Source: Crocosphaera sp. XPORK-15E (GTDB lineage Bacteria > Cyanobacteriota > Cyanobacteriia > Cyanobacteriales > Microcystaceae). Taken from it: a DNA stretch of 32,000 nt. The position numbers and the translations under genes are program-made. The DNA is taken from NCBI RefSeq assembly GCF_034931425.1, contig NZ_JAYGHQ010000019.1, forward strand, positions 54,216 through 86,215, in the 5' to 3' direction. Under the pieces are notes generated by a model. The model ran no database searches, was not told where the DNA came from, and saw only the letters and a program-made list of their open reading frames with translations. Shown here in pieces: positions 6,245 to 12,870 of the stretch (position 1 is its first letter; every line of letters starts with the position of its first letter).

Positions 6245-7371
6245 TTATGGAATAAGCCTCCTAAAAAGCCTTCTATTCCCCCTTTACCGTGACTATGACC
6301 CTTAATATGGGCTAATTTTTCTAAAAGTTCCCGTTCCTCTGCATTGATCCGGGTGGGGATATCAATTGTAATGGTGATCAGATGATCGCCCCGCATAGTT
6401 GCATTTCCCAGTTTAGGAACCCCTAAATTTTCCATGGTTAACACCGTATTGGGTTGAGTTCCTGCGGGAATGATTAATTCTTGTTCTCCATCAACGGTAT
6501 TGACAGGAACGGTACATCCTAAAATTGCTTGCAGATAACTGATAGTAATTTCAGAATGAATATTCATCCCATCGCGGGTAAATTCTCTGTCAGGTTCGAC
6601 ATAGAGATAAACGTAAAGATCCCCAGATGGGCCACCTCTCACCCCTGCATCTCCTTCACGGGACACTCTGAGACGGGTTCCGTTATCAACCCCCCCAGGA
6701 ATGGTGATTTTCAGCTTTTTGGTTTCTTGTCTACGTCCGGCCCCACCACAGACTTCGCATTTTTCTTCAATTACTTCTCCACTGCCGTTACAACTGGGAC
6801 AGGCGGAAACTTGGGCAAAACTGCCAAAAGGGGTACGGGTGGCGCGGCGGACTTGTCCTTGACCGTTGCAAGTGGAACAGGTACGAGATCCGGTTCCTGG
6901 TTTGGCCCCGTTACCTTTACAAACTTGACAACTTTCGAGATGAGGGATGCGAATTTCTTTTTCTCCCCCAAATACTGCTTCACGGAAGTCTAATTTGAGG
7001 TCGAGGCGTAAATCATCCCCTTTACTGGGGCCACTTCGACGGCGTGTGGTTCCGGTTGTTGCACCACCTCCAAACCCACTAAAAATGGTTTCAAAGATGT
7101 CGGCAAAACCTCCCATGTCGCCCATATCGCCGTAGTTGAAGCCTCCCGCGCCACTGACTCCTGCTTCTCCAAACTGATCGTAACGACTACGAGTTTCTGG
7201 TTCGGATAGCACTTCGTAAGCGCGATTAATTTCTTTAAAGCGTTCTTCGGCTCCTGGTTCTTTGTTAACATCAGGATGATATTTCCGCGCTAGACGGCGG
7301 TATGCTTGTTTTAGGTCTTCTTTACTGGCGTTACGGGCAACCCCAAGAGTTTCGTAGTAGTCACCTGGCAT
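6241..7371 (-). CDS. dnaJ: Molecular chaperone DnaJ (type I Hsp40)
   Basis: J domain with HPD (YYETLGV...KYHPDVN), a G/F-rich linker, and four CxxCxGxG zinc-finger repeats ([32 protein letters not shown]). Confidence 0.97.
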
Positions 7372-7549
7372 AGAGCTTTGATCGAGTAAGTTGTGCGGTT
7401 GAGTTGAGTGATTGGCCTAGTGTTACTTTAGCAAATTATTGTGAAGAAAACATCAATAAGAATTCTTTTTCTCTAAAATGTAGATGACTTGAGTTTTGCT
7501 AATATTCCATACTGGGTCTGGTTTTGAGGCAAATAAGGGAGATTGAATC

Positions 7550-8020
7550 ATGAGTGATCCATTAACCGCAGGTTTACTTGTAACCTTGCCTGTACAGGAA
7601 TTTGTCAAGTCTGGGACGGAAGATTTGACTAAACGTTTTACCGCAGAGGCGATCGCAAAAATTCCTGTATTATGGGGCAAGATTAAAGCCCGATTAACGG
7701 GAAAATCTCCTAAAGTTGATGAGGCATTGGTTAAAGTGGAAGGGGGCGACAGTGCGGCCATTGAAACTATTACTAAAAATCTTGATGTGGTGTTGGATGA
7801 CGACCCCATTTTTGCTGAGGAATTACAACTTTTAGCCAAGGACATTAAAGCAGGGGAACTCAGACAAGTAGGATTAGAAAATGTTGAGGCGGGTGAATTA
7901 GATGCAGAGGTTGATCAACAGGTAAAGGGACAACCAACGGCTAATACTGAACAAATTGGAGCAACTGGGTTGAAAGTTACGGGAAAAGCGACGATTAAAA
8001 CTAAGCAAAGTATTGAGTAG
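7550..8020 (+). CDS. Hypothetical helical protein with a C-terminal tandem Q/G-rich motif. Candidate Bell-like effector partner of the downstream NLR-like ATPase.
   Basis: 156 aa. GGGAG Shine-Dalgarno about 9 nt upstream. Hydrophobic N-terminus (DPLTAGLLVTLPV), amphipathic middle, and a C-terminus with two motif copies (aa 105-124 and 134-156). The stop is 5 nt before the MNT start. Function is inferred only. Confidence 0.7.
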   Translation: MSDPLTAGLLVTLPVQEFVKSGTEDLTKRFTAEAIAKIPVLWGKIKARLTGKSPKVDEALVKVEGGDSAAIETITKNLDVVLDDDPIFAEELQLLAKDIKAGELRQVGLENVEAGELDAEVDQQVKGQPTANTEQIGATGLKVTGKATIKTKQSIE

Positions 8021-8025
8021 AATTT

Positions 8026-8340
8026 ATGAAACTGGCTATTTCTTTGCCAATGGAAGAATTGCAAACATTTTGTCAGCATTGGCAGATTCAAGAATTGGCA
8101 GTGTTTGGCTCAATTTTACGGGATGATTTTCGTCTGGATACAAGTGATGTGGATTTTTTAGCTGTGTTTGAACCTTCTTGTCGTTGGAGTTTGTTGGATA
8201 GAGTACGCATGGAAAGCGATTTAGAAAAGTTGCTTGATCGTCCAGTGGATTTATTAGACAGAGAAGAAATAGAACAGAGTCCTAATTGGTTACGTCGTCA
8301 AACTATTCTTAAATCAGCCAGAATTATTTATGCCGCGTGA
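8026..8340 (+). CDS. Minimal nucleotidyltransferase (MNT) antitoxin-type protein
   Basis: 104 aa. GS-x-RDD...DVDFLAV nucleotidyltransferase motif (FGSILRDDFRLDTSDVDF). 11-nt overlap with the downstream HEPN gene. Confidence 0.88.
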   Translation: MKLAISLPMEELQTFCQHWQIQELAVFGSILRDDFRLDTSDVDFLAVFEPSCRWSLLDRVRMESDLEKLLDRPVDLLDREEIEQSPNWLRRQTILKSARIIYAA

Positions 8341-8665
8341 TCAAGAAACGCTTTTAGATATTGTGCGATTTGCTCAAGAAATTCTCGATCTGACAAAGGG
8401 AATGGATGAGGATACTTTTGCTAAAAATCGTCCTACTCAACTGGCTATATTGTATGAAATTGCTGTTATGGGAGAAGCTGTTAAACGACTTTCGCCAGAG
8501 TTTCGAGCTAATCATGGGGCGATTCCTTGGAAAGAAATTGCAGGAATGCGAGATAAGGTGATCCATCAATATGATCGCGTTAAAATTGCAGTGGTTTGGC
8601 AAGTTATTATGGTTGATATTCCTTTTTTACTTCGGCAACTTGAACCTTTGTTACCTCAACCATGA
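8330..8665 (+). CDS. HEPN-domain (DUF86) protein, toxin-type partner of MNT
   Basis: 111 aa. R-x4-H motif (AGMRDKVIHQYDRV). Canonical MNT-HEPN gene order and overlap. Confidence 0.88.
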   Translation: MPRDQETLLDIVRFAQEILDLTKGMDEDTFAKNRPTQLAILYEIAVMGEAVKRLSPEFRANHGAIPWKEIAGMRDKVIHQYDRVKIAVVWQVIMVDIPFLLRQLEPLLPQP

Positions 8666-8683
8666 CTTAAAATTTTAGGCAAA

Positions 8684-11209
8684 ATGAACGACAAATTTAA
8701 TCAAACGGGAATTGAAAATTCAATCATTGGCGATAATGCTCAAATTAATGTTGAACAGAAGATCATTTTGCCGTCTGTTAAGAGGGAAATTAAACCAAAC
8801 CCCCACAATTTATTTAACAGTGGAGTCCCTCAATTTGTGGGACGCGATCCCGTTTTAATTAAGTTACACGAACAGTTACAGCAAACTGAAAGGGTCGCTA
8901 TTTCTACCTTAACGGGAATGGGTGGCATCGGTAAATCGGAATTAGCCTTACAGTATAGTTGGCAGGAATGGCCGAAAGAAACTTATCGGGGGGGAATTTG
9001 TTGGTTGAATGTGGTAAATAGTGATCCTGGTTTAAGTATTGTGACTTTTGCCAGCAGTTATTTGGGCTTAACTATACCAGATACGGAATCCTTAAGGAAA
9101 CGGGTTGCTTATTGTTGGCAATATTGGCTTAAAAATGATACGGATCAAACATTGATTATTTTTGATGATGTGCGGGATTATGAGCAGATTAAGCACTATT
9201 TACCGCCGAAGGAAGAAAAACGCTTTAAAGTCATCATTACAACGCGCTGTGAGTATCTATCGGCAACTATTCAAACTCTCCATATCGAGAAGTTAGATGA
9301 AGCAGCAGCCTTAGATTTATTGCGTTCATATATAACTGATGGCAGAATTGATGAGCAAATTGAGCAAGCAGAGTCACTTTGTCGAGATTTGGGCTATTTA
9401 CCCCTAGCTTTGGAATTGGTAGCGCGGTTACTGCGACGGCGCAATAGTTGGACAGTGGAGAAAATTCGGGAGAAGTTGGCAGAGAAGGGGTTAGAAGATG
9501 CTAGTTTAGTTAAAAATCCTAAGTTTGACTCGGAAATGACTGCGGAACGAGGGGTTAAAGCTGCTTTTGATCTGAGTTGGGACGCTTTAAATCAGGAACC
9601 AGAAGCCCAAAATTTAGCTCTCTATCTTAGTTTATTTGCTCTTGCGCCTTTTCCTAAAGTGTTTATTGATGCGTTATTCCCTGAACAAGAGGAAGACGAA
9701 ATTGAGGAATGGTTAACGGATAATCTAGTTCATCTTAATCTAGTCAGAACCTTAGATAATGGTTGGTATGAACTGCATACTTTGATTCGTCGCTATCTAA
9801 GGGATAAATTAGAACAGTCTGAGATTAAAGAGACAGCAAAACAAGCTTACTGTAAGGTGATGGTGATAGTTGCTCAAAATATTCCTCATACCCCTACCTT
9901 AGAAGATATTGCCAATTTTGAACCCATTATTGATCACCTGAAAGTTGTTGCTGATGAGTTAGACAAATCCCTAGAAGATGAGGATTTATATTGGCCGTTT
10001 ATTGGTTTGGGTAGTTTTTATCGAGGTCAAGGACTCTATAATGATGCAGAACCCTATTTAACCAATTGTTTAACCTTTACGCAACAACGCTTAGGGGAAA
10101 ATCATCCCGATGTTGCACAAAGTCTCAACAATTTAGCTTTATTGTACTTTTCTCAAGGACGTTACCCAGAAGCAGAACCCTTGTATCTGCGATCGCTGTC
10201 TATCTGGGAACAACAATTGGGGGAAAATCATCCCCATGTTGCTTCCAGTCTCAACAATTTAGCAGAATTGTACCGTTCTCAAGGACGTTACCCAGAAGCT
10301 GAACCCTTGTTACTGCGATCGCTGTCTATCATGGAACAACGCTTAAGGGAAAATCATCCCCATGTTGCTACCAGTCTCAACAATTTAGCAGAATTGTACC
10401 GTTCTCAAGGACGTTACCCAGAAGCAGAACCCTTGTATCGGCGATCGCTGTCTATCAGGGAACAACAATTGGGGGAAAATCATCCCGATGTTGCTACCAG
10501 TCTCAACAATTTAGCTAGTTTGTACAGTTCTCAAGGACGTTACCCAGAAGCAGAACCCTTGTATCGGCGATCGCTGTCTATCAGGGAACAACAATTGGGG
10601 GAAAATCATCCCGATGTTGCTACCAGTCTCAACAATTTAGCTAGTTTGTACAGTTCTCAAGGACGTTACCCAGAAGCAGAACCCTTGTATCGGCGATCGC
10701 TGTCTATCAGGGAACAACAATTGGGGGAAAATCATCCCGATGTTGCTTCCAGTCTCAACAATTTAGCTGGTTTGTACGAATCTCAAGGACGTTACCCAGA
10801 AGCAGAACCCTTGTATCTGCGATCGCTGTCTATCAGGGAACAACAATTGGGGGAAAATCATCCCTCTGTTGCTTCCAGTCTTAACAATTTAGCTTTGTTG
10901 TATGAAACGCAAGGAAAGCTGGAAGAAGCAGAAAGATTTGCACAACAAGCATTAACAATGTATCAAGCTGCATTAAGTGATAATCATCCTCATACTCTTA
11001 ATTCATTGCTTATGGTTAAAGGTTTCCAGATGATGAAGCTTTTGGGATGCGATAAACAAACATTGTTGGGTATTCTACAAGCAATTGCAGAGGCGAATAA
11101 TATTCCCCAGTTGAATACAGAAACAATGTTGATGTTACTGGACTTTATGTCGGATAATCCCGAATTATTGGAGAGTTTGCGGGAACAAATATCAACGAGA
11201 ACATCATAA
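8684..11209 (+). CDS. STAND NTPase: NB-ARC ATPase plus a TPR (TPR_10/12, kinesin-light-chain-like) sensor array. NLR-like protein with only a ~45-aa N-terminal extension.
   Basis: Walker A GMGGIGKSELA, Walker B LIIFDDV, IITTR, and a GLPLA-like motif GYLPLALELV. About 8 TPR units of 42 aa (GRYPEAEPLYxRSLSIxEQQLGENHPxVAxSLNNLAxLYxSQ). N-terminus NQTGIENSIIGDNAQINVEQ. Confidence 0.92.
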   Translation: MNDKFNQTGIENSIIGDNAQINVEQKIILPSVKREIKPNPHNLFNSGVPQFVGRDPVLIKLHEQLQQTERVAISTLTGMGGIGKSELALQYSWQEWPKETYRGGICWLNVVNSDPGLSIVTFASSYLGLTIPDTESLRKRVAYCWQYWLKNDTDQTLIIFDDVRDYEQIKHYLPPKEEKRFKVIITTRCEYLSATIQTLHIEKLDEAAALDLLRSYITDGRIDEQIEQAESLCRDLGYLPLALELVARLLRRRNSWTVEKIREKLAEKGLEDASLVKNPKFDSEMTAERGVKAAFDLSWDALNQEPEAQNLALYLSLFALAPFPKVFIDALFPEQEEDEIEEWLTDNLVHLNLVRTLDNGWYELHTLIRRYLRDKLEQSEIKETAKQAYCKVMVIVAQNIPHTPTLEDIANFEPIIDHLKVVADELDKSLEDEDLYWPFIGLGSFYRGQGLYNDAEPYLTNCLTFTQQRLGENHPDVAQSLNNLALLYFSQGRYPEAEPLYLRSLSIWEQQLGENHPHVASSLNNLAELYRSQGRYPEAEPLLLRSLSIMEQRLRENHPHVATSLNNLAELYRSQGRYPEAEPLYRRSLSIREQQLGENHPDVATSLNNLASLYSSQGRYPEAEPLYRRSLSIREQQLGENHPDVATSLNNLASLYSSQGRYPEAEPLYRRSLSIREQQLGENHPDVASSLNNLAGLYESQGRYPEAEPLYLRSLSIREQQLGENHPSVASSLNNLALLYETQGKLEEAERFAQQALTMYQAALSDNHPHTLNSLLMVKGFQMMKLLGCDKQTLLGILQAIAEANNIPQLNTETMLMLLDFMSDNPELLESLREQISTRTS
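10157..10912 (+). repeat. Six near-identical in-frame tandem 126-bp units (TPR repeats). More diverged units flank them at ~10031-10156 and ~10913-11040.
   Basis: Unit starts at 10157, 10283, 10409, 10535, 10661 and 10787 (GGACGTTACCCAGAAGC...). Units 10409-10534 and 10535-10660 are identical at all 126 nt. Each unit carries one HIP1 site. Confidence 0.95.
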
Positions 11210-11341: not shown

Positions 11342-11536
11342 ATGAAAGTCCGCAATGTTATTCAACGGTTAAAAGTCGATGGATGGTATCAAGCAAGAAT
11401 GCGAGGTAGTCATCGAGTTTTTAAACACCCTCAAAAAATGGGTATTGTCGTCGTTCCGGGTAGCTTTTCTGATGAAGTTGCCATTGGCACATTAAAAAGT
11501 ATTTGGAAACAAGCACAGATAGAGGATGAAACATGA
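11342..11536 (+). CDS. hicA: HicA-family toxin (mRNA interferase, YcfA-like)
   Basis: 64 aa. LKVDGWYQARMRGSHRVFKHP motif. ATGA overlap with hicB. Confidence 0.88.
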   Translation: MKVRNVIQRLKVDGWYQARMRGSHRVFKHPQKMGIVVVPGSFSDEVAIGTLKSIWKQAQIEDET

Positions 11537-11748
11537 AAGAATATCTAGTTATTTTTGAACAGGCTGGTAATAACTATTCTGCTTATGTTCCTGATTTACC
11601 TGGTTGTATATCTACAGGAAAAACGCTTGAAGAATTAGAAATCAATATTAAAGAAGCAATTACGCTTTATATTGATACTCTTAAGGAAGATGGTCAACCC
11701 ATTCCAGAACCTTCAGTGAGTAGCAAATTGATTAAAGTAGCCGCATAA
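11533..11748 (+). CDS. hicB: HicB-family antitoxin (UPF0150 fold, short form)
   Basis: 71 aa. YSAYVPDLPGCISTGKTLEELEINIKEAITLYI is typical of the HicB N-domain. Confidence 0.85.
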   Translation: MKEYLVIFEQAGNNYSAYVPDLPGCISTGKTLEELEINIKEAITLYIDTLKEDGQPIPEPSVSSKLIKVAA

Positions 11749-11807
11749 AAGGACAATTACTAGACTGTGTACTTTTTTTTAAAGAACGATATACTTCAGC
11801 AAAAACT

Positions 11808-12026
11808 ATGACAATTAAAGAACAACTCATTAAAGAAATTGAACATATTCCTGATTCTCTCTTAGGACAATTACTTGATTATGTACTCTTTCTTAAAGAA
11901 CGACATATTGAAGAAGAAATCGGCGAAGAAGAAATCAGCGAAGAAGAACGTGATAATATTATTGCATCTGAGTCTGCTTATCAATCAGGAGATTACTTAA
12001 CCCTTGAAGAATATGAGGCTAGTTAA
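11808..12026 (+). CDS. Putative type II antitoxin (acidic C-terminus)
   Basis: 72 aa. LLGQLLDYVLFLKERH helix then an E-rich tail. It directly precedes a relE/parE-type reading frame. Confidence 0.65.
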   Translation: MTIKEQLIKEIEHIPDSLLGQLLDYVLFLKERHIEEEIGEEEISEEERDNIIASESAYQSGDYLTLEEYEAS

Positions 12027-12028
12027 AA

Positions 12029-12282
12029 TTGAGCTATCATATTATTATTCCTAAACCTGTTCAAAAGCAACTAGATGAATTACCTCAAAAACAACGCAAA
12101 CGAATGATTGCAGACATTCGACTTCTTGCTGATACACCTCGTCCTAATGGAGTTAAAAAGATAAAGGATATGATAACAGTTATCGAATCAGAATAGGTAA
12201 CTATCGTGTAATTTACAGAATTCAAGATAAGGAAATGCTGATTCTTGTCTTAAGTTGTATTCATCGTAAAGATGCTTATTAA
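12029..12282 (+). pseudogene. Frameshifted RelE/ParE-family toxin gene
   Basis: Frame A (TTG 12029 to TAG 12194-12196) gives LSYHIIIPKPVQKQLDELPQKQRKRMIADIRLLADTPRPNGVKKIKD... Frame B from ~12166 gives GYDNSYRIRIGNYRVIYRIQDKEMLILVLSCIHRKDAY* (stop 12280-12282). Together they make a complete RelE/ParE toxin, broken by a 1-nt frame change near 12160-12170. Confidence 0.8.
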
Positions 12283-12290
12283 ACTAGAGT

Positions 12291-12338
12291 AATTTAATGG
12301 CTTTGTAGGGGTTTAATACCGTTAAACCCTGAGCGACA
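12291..12338. repeat. Cassette-boundary element copy 2 (module A only)
   Basis: 46 of 48 nt identical to 11228-11275. Starts 9 nt after the pseudogene stop. Confidence 0.85.
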
Positions 12339-12397
12339 TTCACACATATATAAATAATATATATAATAGGATAGTCACCATTAAAGGATAAAAAAAC

Positions 12398-12607
12398 ATG
12401 GAATCAATCATTAATGAAGAAAAGACAAAAGAACTTCTAACTGAAATTTTAATAGAGATGATGCAATCGAAACGAGAAATCTTTTATGAAATTGTTTTAG
12501 AAGCGTTAGAAGAAATCGGGTTAGCTAACGCCATAACGGAAGGAAGACAGAATGAATTTGTTTCCGAAGAAGAAATATTTTCAATTCTTGATAGCGAAGT
12601 AGAATGA
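12398..12607 (+). CDS. Putative type II antitoxin
   Basis: 69 aa, acidic. ATGA overlap with the downstream RelE/ParE toxin. Confidence 0.65.
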   Translation: MESIINEEKTKELLTEILIEMMQSKREIFYEIVLEALEEIGLANAITEGRQNEFVSEEEIFSILDSEVE

Positions 12608-12870
12608 AAATTAAATTTGAATCAAAATTTGCGAAAGACTTGAAGAAAATTAAAGATAAAAAACTATTATTAAATGTCAAAGAGAGCATCAATGAATGTA
12701 AATTAGCTGATAGTTTAAGTGAAATCAATAATCTCAAAAAACTTAAAGGTTATCAAACATTTTATCGCCTGAAAATAGGAGACTATCGAATTGGGATTGA
12801 AATCACTAATAATGAATTGATTTTTGTTCGCTTTTTACATAGAAAAGAAGTTTATAGATTCTTCCCCTAA
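12604..12870 (+). CDS. RelE/ParE-family toxin (plasmid stabilisation system type)
   Basis: 88 aa. KKLKGYQTFYRLKIGDYRIGIEITNNELIFVRFLHRKEVY matches the RelE/ParE core pattern. Confidence 0.85.
   Translation: MKIKFESKFAKDLKKIKDKKLLLNVKESINECKLADSLSEINNLKKLKGYQTFYRLKIGDYRIGIEITNNELIFVRFLHRKEVYRFFP

Follow-up and report, generated by a model that had tools for sequence, protein, structure and literature searches.

Does a 156-residue protein of Crocosphaera sp. XPORK-15E share with an ATPase of the same locus a motif through which the ATPase could switch it on? The question arises in a 32,000-nucleotide stretch of this genome (the window, that is, the whole stretch of DNA analysed), in which an original prediction had paired a small putative cell-death effector (7550-8020) with an 841-residue nucleotide-binding oligomerisation domain-like receptor (NLR; 8684-11209), both on the + strand, through a motif occurring twice at the C-terminus of the former and once at the N-terminus of the latter. 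The reading that we favour, with a probability of roughly 0.7, is that of a Bell-domain executioner and its cognate NB-ARC/tetratricopeptide repeat (TPR) NLR, coupled by a divergent amyloid signalling motif akin to BASS4, one of the bacterial amyloid signalling sequences (BASS). Its basis, as computed here, is the Bell homology, the linkage to NLR genes, class-level co-variation of the partners, the relation to BASS4, charge swaps in the effector tail and an all-β prediction for that tail. Oligomerisation, templating, toxicity and a role in defence would follow by analogy with HET-S/NWD2, BASS and Bab/Agp systems.

Effector, ATPase and their motifs

In sequence, the 156-residue protein equals WP_323293364.1 (100% identity), annotated as hypothetical in Crocosphaera sp. 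XPORK-15E, and it had zero matches in Pfam (E up to 1), NCBIfam and PADLOC. Its residues 1-105 are 75% identical (90% positives) to ELS47768.1 (P0124 among its homologues), which is listed as a Bell-side BASS9 protein in Table S2 of the preprint by Dyrka et al. (2020, bioRxiv 10.1101/2020.01.06.895854), and hence the N-domain of the effector is a Bell domain by its authors' definition, as the term Bell-like in the original prediction had anticipated. Bell was described there as an α-helical N-terminal domain of ~100 aa, with a hydrophobic N-terminal helix bearing an acidic residue at position 2 or 3 (Dyrka et al., 2020). Consistent with this, the effector begins with MSDPLTAGLLVTLPV, with the acidic residue (Asp3) at position 3, the family consensus is MxDPLTAxxLVxLAVQEF, and AlphaFold2 predicts for the domain (aa 1-104, 7550-7861) a hydrophobic N-terminal helix and then a helical bundle, with six helices from aa 7 to 101 (7-19, 23-29, 32-49, 54-64, 69-84 and 86-101). 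A sequence search of the PDB with the family profile returned nothing credible (best E = 0.27, MatB), and the best Foldseek match of the full-length model in the PDB was not significant (E = 0.18), with Bab, HeLo and MLKL unmatched. The effector is thus a Bell-domain protein, for which killing or membrane activity is a prediction from homology.

The 841-residue protein has an NB-ARC domain (PF00931, E = 3.5e-17) at aa 60-274, with the P-loop GMGGIGKS read from the sequence at aa 78-85 (8915-8938), and then a C-terminal TPR region (TPR_12, E = 1.5e-125), the architecture of NB-ARC-TPR signal transduction ATPases with numerous domains (STAND). Tandem Repeats Finder resolves the TPR array at 10083-10894 into 6.4 copies of a 126-nt (42-aa) unit with 93% nucleotide identity; such high internal repeat conservation matches that typical of fast-evolving NLR sensors. 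Ahead of NB-ARC, whose Pfam match starts at aa 60, we saw only the motif and a linker, in agreement with the claim that the motif is the sole sequence there and that an effector domain is absent.

The open reading frames (ORFs) and the coordinates first given for the three motif copies proved exact. Repeat 1 of the effector tail, RQVGLENVEAGELDAEVDQQ, spans aa 105-124 (7862-7921), and repeat 2, EQIGATGLKVTGKATIKTKQSIE, spans aa 134-156 (7949-8017). The single copy in the NLR, originally delimited at aa 6-26 (8699-8761), is matched by a hidden Markov model (HMM) over aa 4-28 (8693-8767) as KFNQTGIENSIIGDNAQINVEQKII. Measured from Q to Q, each unit comprises 18-19 residues, in which hydrophobic ones alternate, in keeping with the length (~20-25 residues), G/N/Q content and β propensity of BASS motifs.

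Motif classes among relatives

In the window alone, the likeness of tail and NLR motif is barely above chance, and its significance comes from relatives. Smith-Waterman alignment of tail aa 100-156 with NLR aa 1-40 scores 30, so that the match first aligned by eye is only marginally better than shuffled controls (p = 0.033 and 0.049). Taken separately, the shuffle p is 0.02 for repeat 1 against the NLR motif, 0.09 for repeat 2 against the NLR motif and 0.57 for repeat 1 against repeat 2. Such values are what one might obtain from two low-complexity, Q/G/N-containing stretches that resemble each other by chance, and it is on profiles from other loci that this explanation founders.

We built an NLR-side HMM from six motifs of other loci, leaving the window out, and ran it against 1188 ORFs. 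It finds the window NLR at aa 4-28 with 27 bits (E = 1.7e-7) and, at E < 1, 23 of the 26 type-a Bell proteins (those with the window's type of tail, defined below), among them the window's own (E = 0.026, both repeats aligned), and none (0/33) of the Bell proteins whose tails are of another kind. Of the other 1088 ORFs, only two matched at E < 1 (in L065 and L016), both of them bearing the NLR-side motif in what are probably NLR fragments. In hhalign comparisons, the NLR-side profile aligns to repeat 2 at 94.4% over 23 columns and to repeat 1 at 84%. The type-a NLR N-termini read MNDKFNQTGIENSIIGDNAQINVEQ in the window, MSEQQQVNQTGLKDVSVGGNLTANLDQ in locus L001, MDNKFTQIGIQYSSFGDNAQIEVQQ in L024, MDNKQTGIKDSTFGDHARIEINQ in L025, MSEQQITQIGMQGVNAGGNINATFDQ in L026 and MDKSVQQTGIQNAQFGDHAQIEINQ in L067, the last being one further type-a pair.

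The tails themselves come in two kinds. A search of 5.8 billion proteins yielded 120 cyanobacterial homologues of the effector, from Microcystis, Pseudanabaena, Woronichinia and Snowella, that have the N-terminal ~105 residues in common and end in one of two alternative tails. Type a, that of the window, reads ..QVGLxxxxAxxxxAExxQ..(linker)..EQIGAxxxKxxGxAxxKxKQxIx. Type b, KIQDNSSMxQNNSDNAKGWQTKVEGGTAYIGEIHI, is the published BASS9 motif, MIQNNSDNAKGWQTKVEGGTAYI, which lies at aa 110-132 of ELS47768.1 and in related Microcystis Bell proteins (Table S2, Dyrka et al., 2020). The type-a tail behaves as a module, since it is also found on diverged Bell-like N-domains, 35-40% identical or less (P0114-P0120, P0151, P0157-P0162 and P0168; the contig of P0117 ends at the gene, so its neighbourhood could not be read). 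A tail-only profile gave 28 matches in 1.84 billion representative proteins, all at the C-termini of small proteins except one unrelated repeat protein. Both repeats are conserved in 60 non-redundant tails, and the copy-1 HMM scores repeat 1 of the window at 35.7 bits. The HMMs and this conservation bear out the proposed arrangement of two repeats on the effector and one on the NLR, as in BASS or HET-S/NWD2 systems.

We then read 68 loci from genomes and metagenomes and classed both sides by HMMs, with the NLR taken from within 5 kb downstream. A type-a Bell tail accompanies an NB-ARC gene (or fragment) with the type-a N-terminal motif in 13 loci, a type-b tail accompanies an NLR with the BASS9 motif in 20, and mixed combinations number 0, so that tail type equals NLR N-terminus type in 33/33 pairs and the expected linkage of the small protein to NLR genes is borne out. 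No matching NLR was found for five type-b Bell genes that are followed by 2.5 kb or more of sequence. Since both sides are specifically recovered by profiles to which the window did not contribute, hhalign joins them and the types agree in all 33 pairs, chance likeness is excluded as an account of the motif, its probability being vanishingly small.

Two other arrangements were observed in this survey. L010 (Microcystis, VYLK01000077.1) has a type-a Bell gene at 6989-7348 with no NLR found within 5 kb, and a second Bell-like gene, of the P0114 type, ~1.5 kb downstream, an arrangement resembling that of the sister strain described below. In L019, L020 and L029 (Microcystis-type metagenome contigs), a BASS9-type Bell gene is followed by a 131-aa ORF and then by a ~1370-aa protein whose N-terminal region is caspase-like (FYFSGHG) and whose P-loop lies near aa 585-600; the BASS9 motif was not detected in this protein.

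As to its family, the motif had been thought possibly new, which our comparisons do not support. We rebuilt BASS profiles from the published Table S2, the BASS4 HMM deriving from 16 published sequences and being distinct from the authors' own profile HMM. It scores the NLR N-termini of L001 and L018 at 20 bits and the window Bell protein, through both repeats, at 13.2 bits (E = 0.004). Its 19 matches at E < 1 among the 1188 ORFs are 12 type-a Bell tails, five P-loop ORFs, those listed being type-a NLR N-termini, and two short fragments bearing the NLR-side motif. The hhalign value for the NLR-side profile against BASS4 is 67.6%. BASS1, 2, 3, 5, 6, 7, 8, 9 and 10 were rejected as the family of the type-a motif, with hhalign values of at most 2% each and unrelated HMMs. 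Because BASS4 alone of BASS1-10 matches in profile comparison, the type-a motif is best read, from these profiles, as a divergent BASS4-like subfamily and not clearly a new family. Motif words such as QVGL, NQTG, GKATIK and others were not found in the supplementary tables of Dyrka et al. Crocosphaera watsonii and Microcystis were among the earlier reported carriers of Bell/BASS pairs (Dyrka et al., 2020); in the part of Table S2 available to us, the Crocosphaera rows carry a different motif, left unclassified by the authors.

Charge pattern and predicted fold of the tail

The two repeats complement each other in charge. We aligned them parallel and in register, from Q to Q and with a single gap, placed in repeat 1 after its position 10, in 59 non-redundant tails. 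Aligned in this way, each protein has on average 3.68 opposite-charge pairs and 0.07 same-charge ones, compared to at most 1.56 opposite-charge pairs in shifted parallel registers and at most 2.41 in antiparallel ones. Column 12 has opposite charges in 59/59 tails (R/D in 32, E/K in 27), column 8 pairs E/K, E/R or K/E, and columns 5, 16 and 18 are mostly complementary too. Neither re-pairing repeats across proteins nor permuting columns ever equalled the observed complementarity (permutation p <= 2e-4). Repeat 1 is acidic, with a mean net charge of -3.0, and repeat 2 is basic, at +1.8; charged residues number 5.3 and 4.8 in the two, respectively, compared to 3.2 in the NLR motif. Judged from the alignment, the pattern fits the signature expected of two stacked β-solenoid rungs, as in HET-s.

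A β structure for the tail, implied by the original prediction, also emerges from AlphaFold2. In the full-length effector the tail is predicted as β with a predicted local distance difference test score (pLDDT) of about 70-85, and the tail alone reaches a pLDDT of 89.4 and a predicted template modelling score (pTM) of 0.64, as two strand-arc-strand-arc-strand units with a 6-residue loop between them. This all-β, two-rung model fits a HET-s-like β-solenoid. Antiparallel or helical hairpins were rejected as the form of the tail, given the 2.41 opposite-charge pairs, at most, of antiparallel registers against 3.68 in the parallel one.

Signalling by the locus may then be envisaged as follows. The TPR array of the NLR would sense a ligand, perhaps phage-derived or arising from cellular perturbation, upon which NB-ARC would oligomerise and the single N-terminal motifs (aa 4-28) would cluster and adopt a cross-β fold. 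That fold would template the effector tail, whose acidic repeat 1 and basic repeat 2 would stack parallel and in register as two β-solenoid rungs held by a ladder of salt bridges. Folding of the tail would free the hydrophobic N-terminal helix of Bell for attack on the membrane and cell death, be it abortive infection or regulated cell death.

The same structural data could be taken to mean that the motif is a docking module and not a prion-like template, such that a stoichiometric heteromeric β-sheet, formed by β-augmentation, recruits or releases the effector without self-propagating amyloid. A monomeric tail suffices for a confident AlphaFold2 fold (pLDDT 89). Since the charges of one repeat are satisfied by the other in the same molecule, the tail could form a stable mini-domain, closed on itself, and the identity of the NLR motif to either repeat is only ~30%. 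However, HET-s and HELLF, whose effectors likewise have two complementary rungs and whose NLRs have a single copy, are genuine amyloids. Those related BASS motifs that have been put to the test form fibrils and prions, as BASS1 and BASS3 do, and the motif matches BASS in composition and length. We therefore hold docking of this kind to be improbable, and continue with templating by the BASS4-like motif as the preferred reading.

The locus and its place among related systems

The effector and NLR genes were originally treated as neighbours; they are in fact separated by 663 bp holding two genes that had gone unmentioned. The first (8026-8340, PF01909, E = 3.3e-15) encodes an MntA-like nucleotidyltransferase, the antitoxin of a type VII toxin-antitoxin pair (NF047752 MntA 33.9 bits, below the cut-off of 60; PADLOC PDC-S09, 1.3e-20), and overlaps by 11 nt the second (8330-8665, PF01934, E = 1.8e-22), which encodes a HepT-like (DUF86) RNase toxin. 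A nucleotidyltransferase gene overlapping a HepT/DUF86 gene is the organisation of type VII MntA/HepT, with NCBIfam equivalog scores here below their cut-offs. With the remaining gaps being 5 and 18 nt, the four genes form a run of close-packed intact ORFs on the + strand, and the MntA/HepT pair is most likely an opportunistic toxin-antitoxin insertion inside one operon. Terminator-like sites are absent from the short gaps among the four genes, the nearest on the + strand lying at 8837-8853 within the NLR ORF; the six sites found, compared to 3.6 ± 1.9 expected from shuffles, are all in that ORF. A promoter scan gave chance-level results. The two partner genes, on the same strand at this distance and with a motif common to the Bell C-terminus and the NB-ARC N-terminus, have the arrangement of a BASS pair, pairs up to 5 kb apart and usually collinear having been accepted by Dyrka et al. 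(2020).

Crocosphaera sp. UHCC 0190, a sister strain (L066, JAYGHP010000025.1), is syntenic and about 96% identical. There, a second Bell-like gene (120 aa) in 6838-7566, corresponding to window 8333-8790, replaces HepT and the first ~35 NLR codons, motif included, and is in frame with the NB-ARC ORF with one stop codon between. Its tail, KLEKILNFASRDIN, by eye resembles the published BASS5 motif. The NB-ARC/TPR gene as called is truncated to 508 aa, with a separate 310-aa gene called downstream, and an IS605 OrfB/TnpB gene lies directly upstream of the first Bell gene.

Toxin-antitoxin insertion and recombination could thus have uncoupled the effector from its NLR, leaving the window with a decaying relic whose signalling is lost. 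Two foreign genes between the partners, the split NLR of UHCC 0190 with its motif-coding 5' end and HepT replaced by another Bell gene, and type-a Bell genes for which no matching NLR was found all lend themselves to this view. Yet the four ORFs of the window are intact and tightly spaced on one strand with terminator-free gaps, the NLR retains its P-loop, NB-ARC domain and 93%-identical TPR array, small genes commonly lie between the partners of type-a pairs whose motifs still match, and the spacing lies within the 5 kb accepted for such pairs. Decay is, on balance, very unlikely for the window, where we retain a coupled Bell/NLR pair as the better reading.

Several observations weigh against that reading. 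Coupling is not always maintained, because the sister-strain NLR has lost its motif, and no matching NLR was found for three type-a Bell genes that have 2.5 kb or more of sequence after them. Co-variation of the partner motifs, proposed at the outset as a check, stands at the level of class and fails at that of residues: within type a it is not significant (Mantel r = 0.20, p = 0.12), and NLR motifs have 5-8/19 residues in common with their own repeat 2, compared to an average of 5.4 for non-partners. The rebuilt BASS4 HMM does not recognise the window NLR motif (0.1 bit). The charge swaps in the tails probably trace to few independent evolutionary events. Foldseek places the amyloid solenoid of HELLF (6EKA) first among PDB matches of the tail model, but short of significance (E = 1.7, TM 0.22), and HET-s is unmatched. 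Moreover, in the part of the preprint available to us, the sections on prion and fibril assays cover BASS1 and BASS3 only.

Small genes, toxin-antitoxin or similar, recur between type-a Bell genes and NLRs. Besides MntA/HepT in the window (8026-8665), a ParE toxin lies between Bell and NLR in L014 (5701-5967) and, by position, in L025; a DUF29 protein does so in L001 (6487-6918; this copy confirmed by Pfam), L018, L021 and L026; and in L008 (5683-5949) and L048 a ParE-type ORF directly follows Bell, the contigs ending too soon for an NLR to be seen. Past the NLR gene of the window there is directly a toxin-antitoxin island (11342-12870), made up of HicA (11342-11536) and HicB (11533-11748), a weak DUF2281-like ORF (11808-12026) with a 55-aa ORF (12029-12196), and a RelB-like antitoxin (12398-12607) with ParE (12604-12870). 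Housekeeping genes flank the whole: upstream, ORFs resembling a GTPase (annotated as RsgA in the sister strain), TusA and DnaJ, and downstream a large ORF that reads by eye as dnaX. A bolder version of the preferred reading, which we regard as rather unlikely, would make the type-a tail a distinct bacterial motif subfamily, with a HET-s-like two-rung β-solenoid inside one effector and a co-evolving inter-rung salt-bridge ladder, convergent or anciently shared with the prions of the fungal HET-s-related amyloid motif (HRAM), and would have the recurring toxin-antitoxin modules (MntA/HepT, RelB-like/ParE, DUF29) play a functional part in the system, for instance that of stabilisers or of second effectors.

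Altogether, our analyses extend the catalogue of bacterial amyloid signalling by an intact Bell/NLR pair, not listed before, from a genus of unicellular diazotrophic cyanobacteria, and delineate a small two-repeat subfamily, best regarded as BASS4-like but divergent, whose charge-swap co-variation is sequence-level evidence for a two-rung, HET-s-like fold. If confirmed, the pair would lend further weight to the analogy between NLR-controlled cell death in fungi and in bacteria and provide a compact cyanobacterial model for cross-seeding. It belongs to the kind of system described in 2020, and the picture drawn by Dyrka et al. (2020) and from Bab/Agp is unchanged.

Nearest to it are the Bell/BASS4-NLR pairs of cyanobacteria, such as BBD58559.1/BBD58560.1 of Nostoc sp. 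HK-01, which, like the window, have a collinear NB-ARC/TPR NLR within 5 kb with the motif at its N-terminus. The type-a Bell side differs from these in that it has two repeats, complementary in charge, that invariably start with Q-h-G. In the window, moreover, the NLR-side variant, QTGIENSIIGDNAQINVEQ, goes undetected by the rebuilt BASS4 HMM, and the partners are separated by the toxin-antitoxin pair. The Bell/BASS9-NLR pairs of Microcystis (ELS47768.1/ELS47767.1 and relatives) have the same Bell domain, gene order and strand as the window. In contrast, their C-terminal motif, MIQNNSDNAKGWQTKVEGGTAYI, is wholly different and single-copy, and their genes are mostly directly adjacent, with gaps of 7-34 bp.

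Bab/Agp (BASS11) of E. coli ECOR25 has been shown experimentally to provide abortive-infection defence via amyloid signalling (bioRxiv 10.1101/2024.11.07.622273). It likewise combines a small Bell-related effector with a neighbouring TPR-containing sensor through a common amyloid motif, and it differs in its motif family, single-copy motif and shorter effector (109 aa). HET-S/NWD2 of Podospora anserina (HRAM, with the HET-s β-solenoid) and HELLF differ in that the window effector has no sequence homology to them (no Pfam match), its host is bacterial and its killing domain is Bell, not HeLo. Like the window, they pair an NLR bearing one pseudo-repeat with an effector bearing two, which are joined by a flexible ~10-residue linker, and they have inter-rung charge complementarity (predicted for the window) and an N-terminal membrane-targeting helix (likewise predicted) within a helical killing domain.

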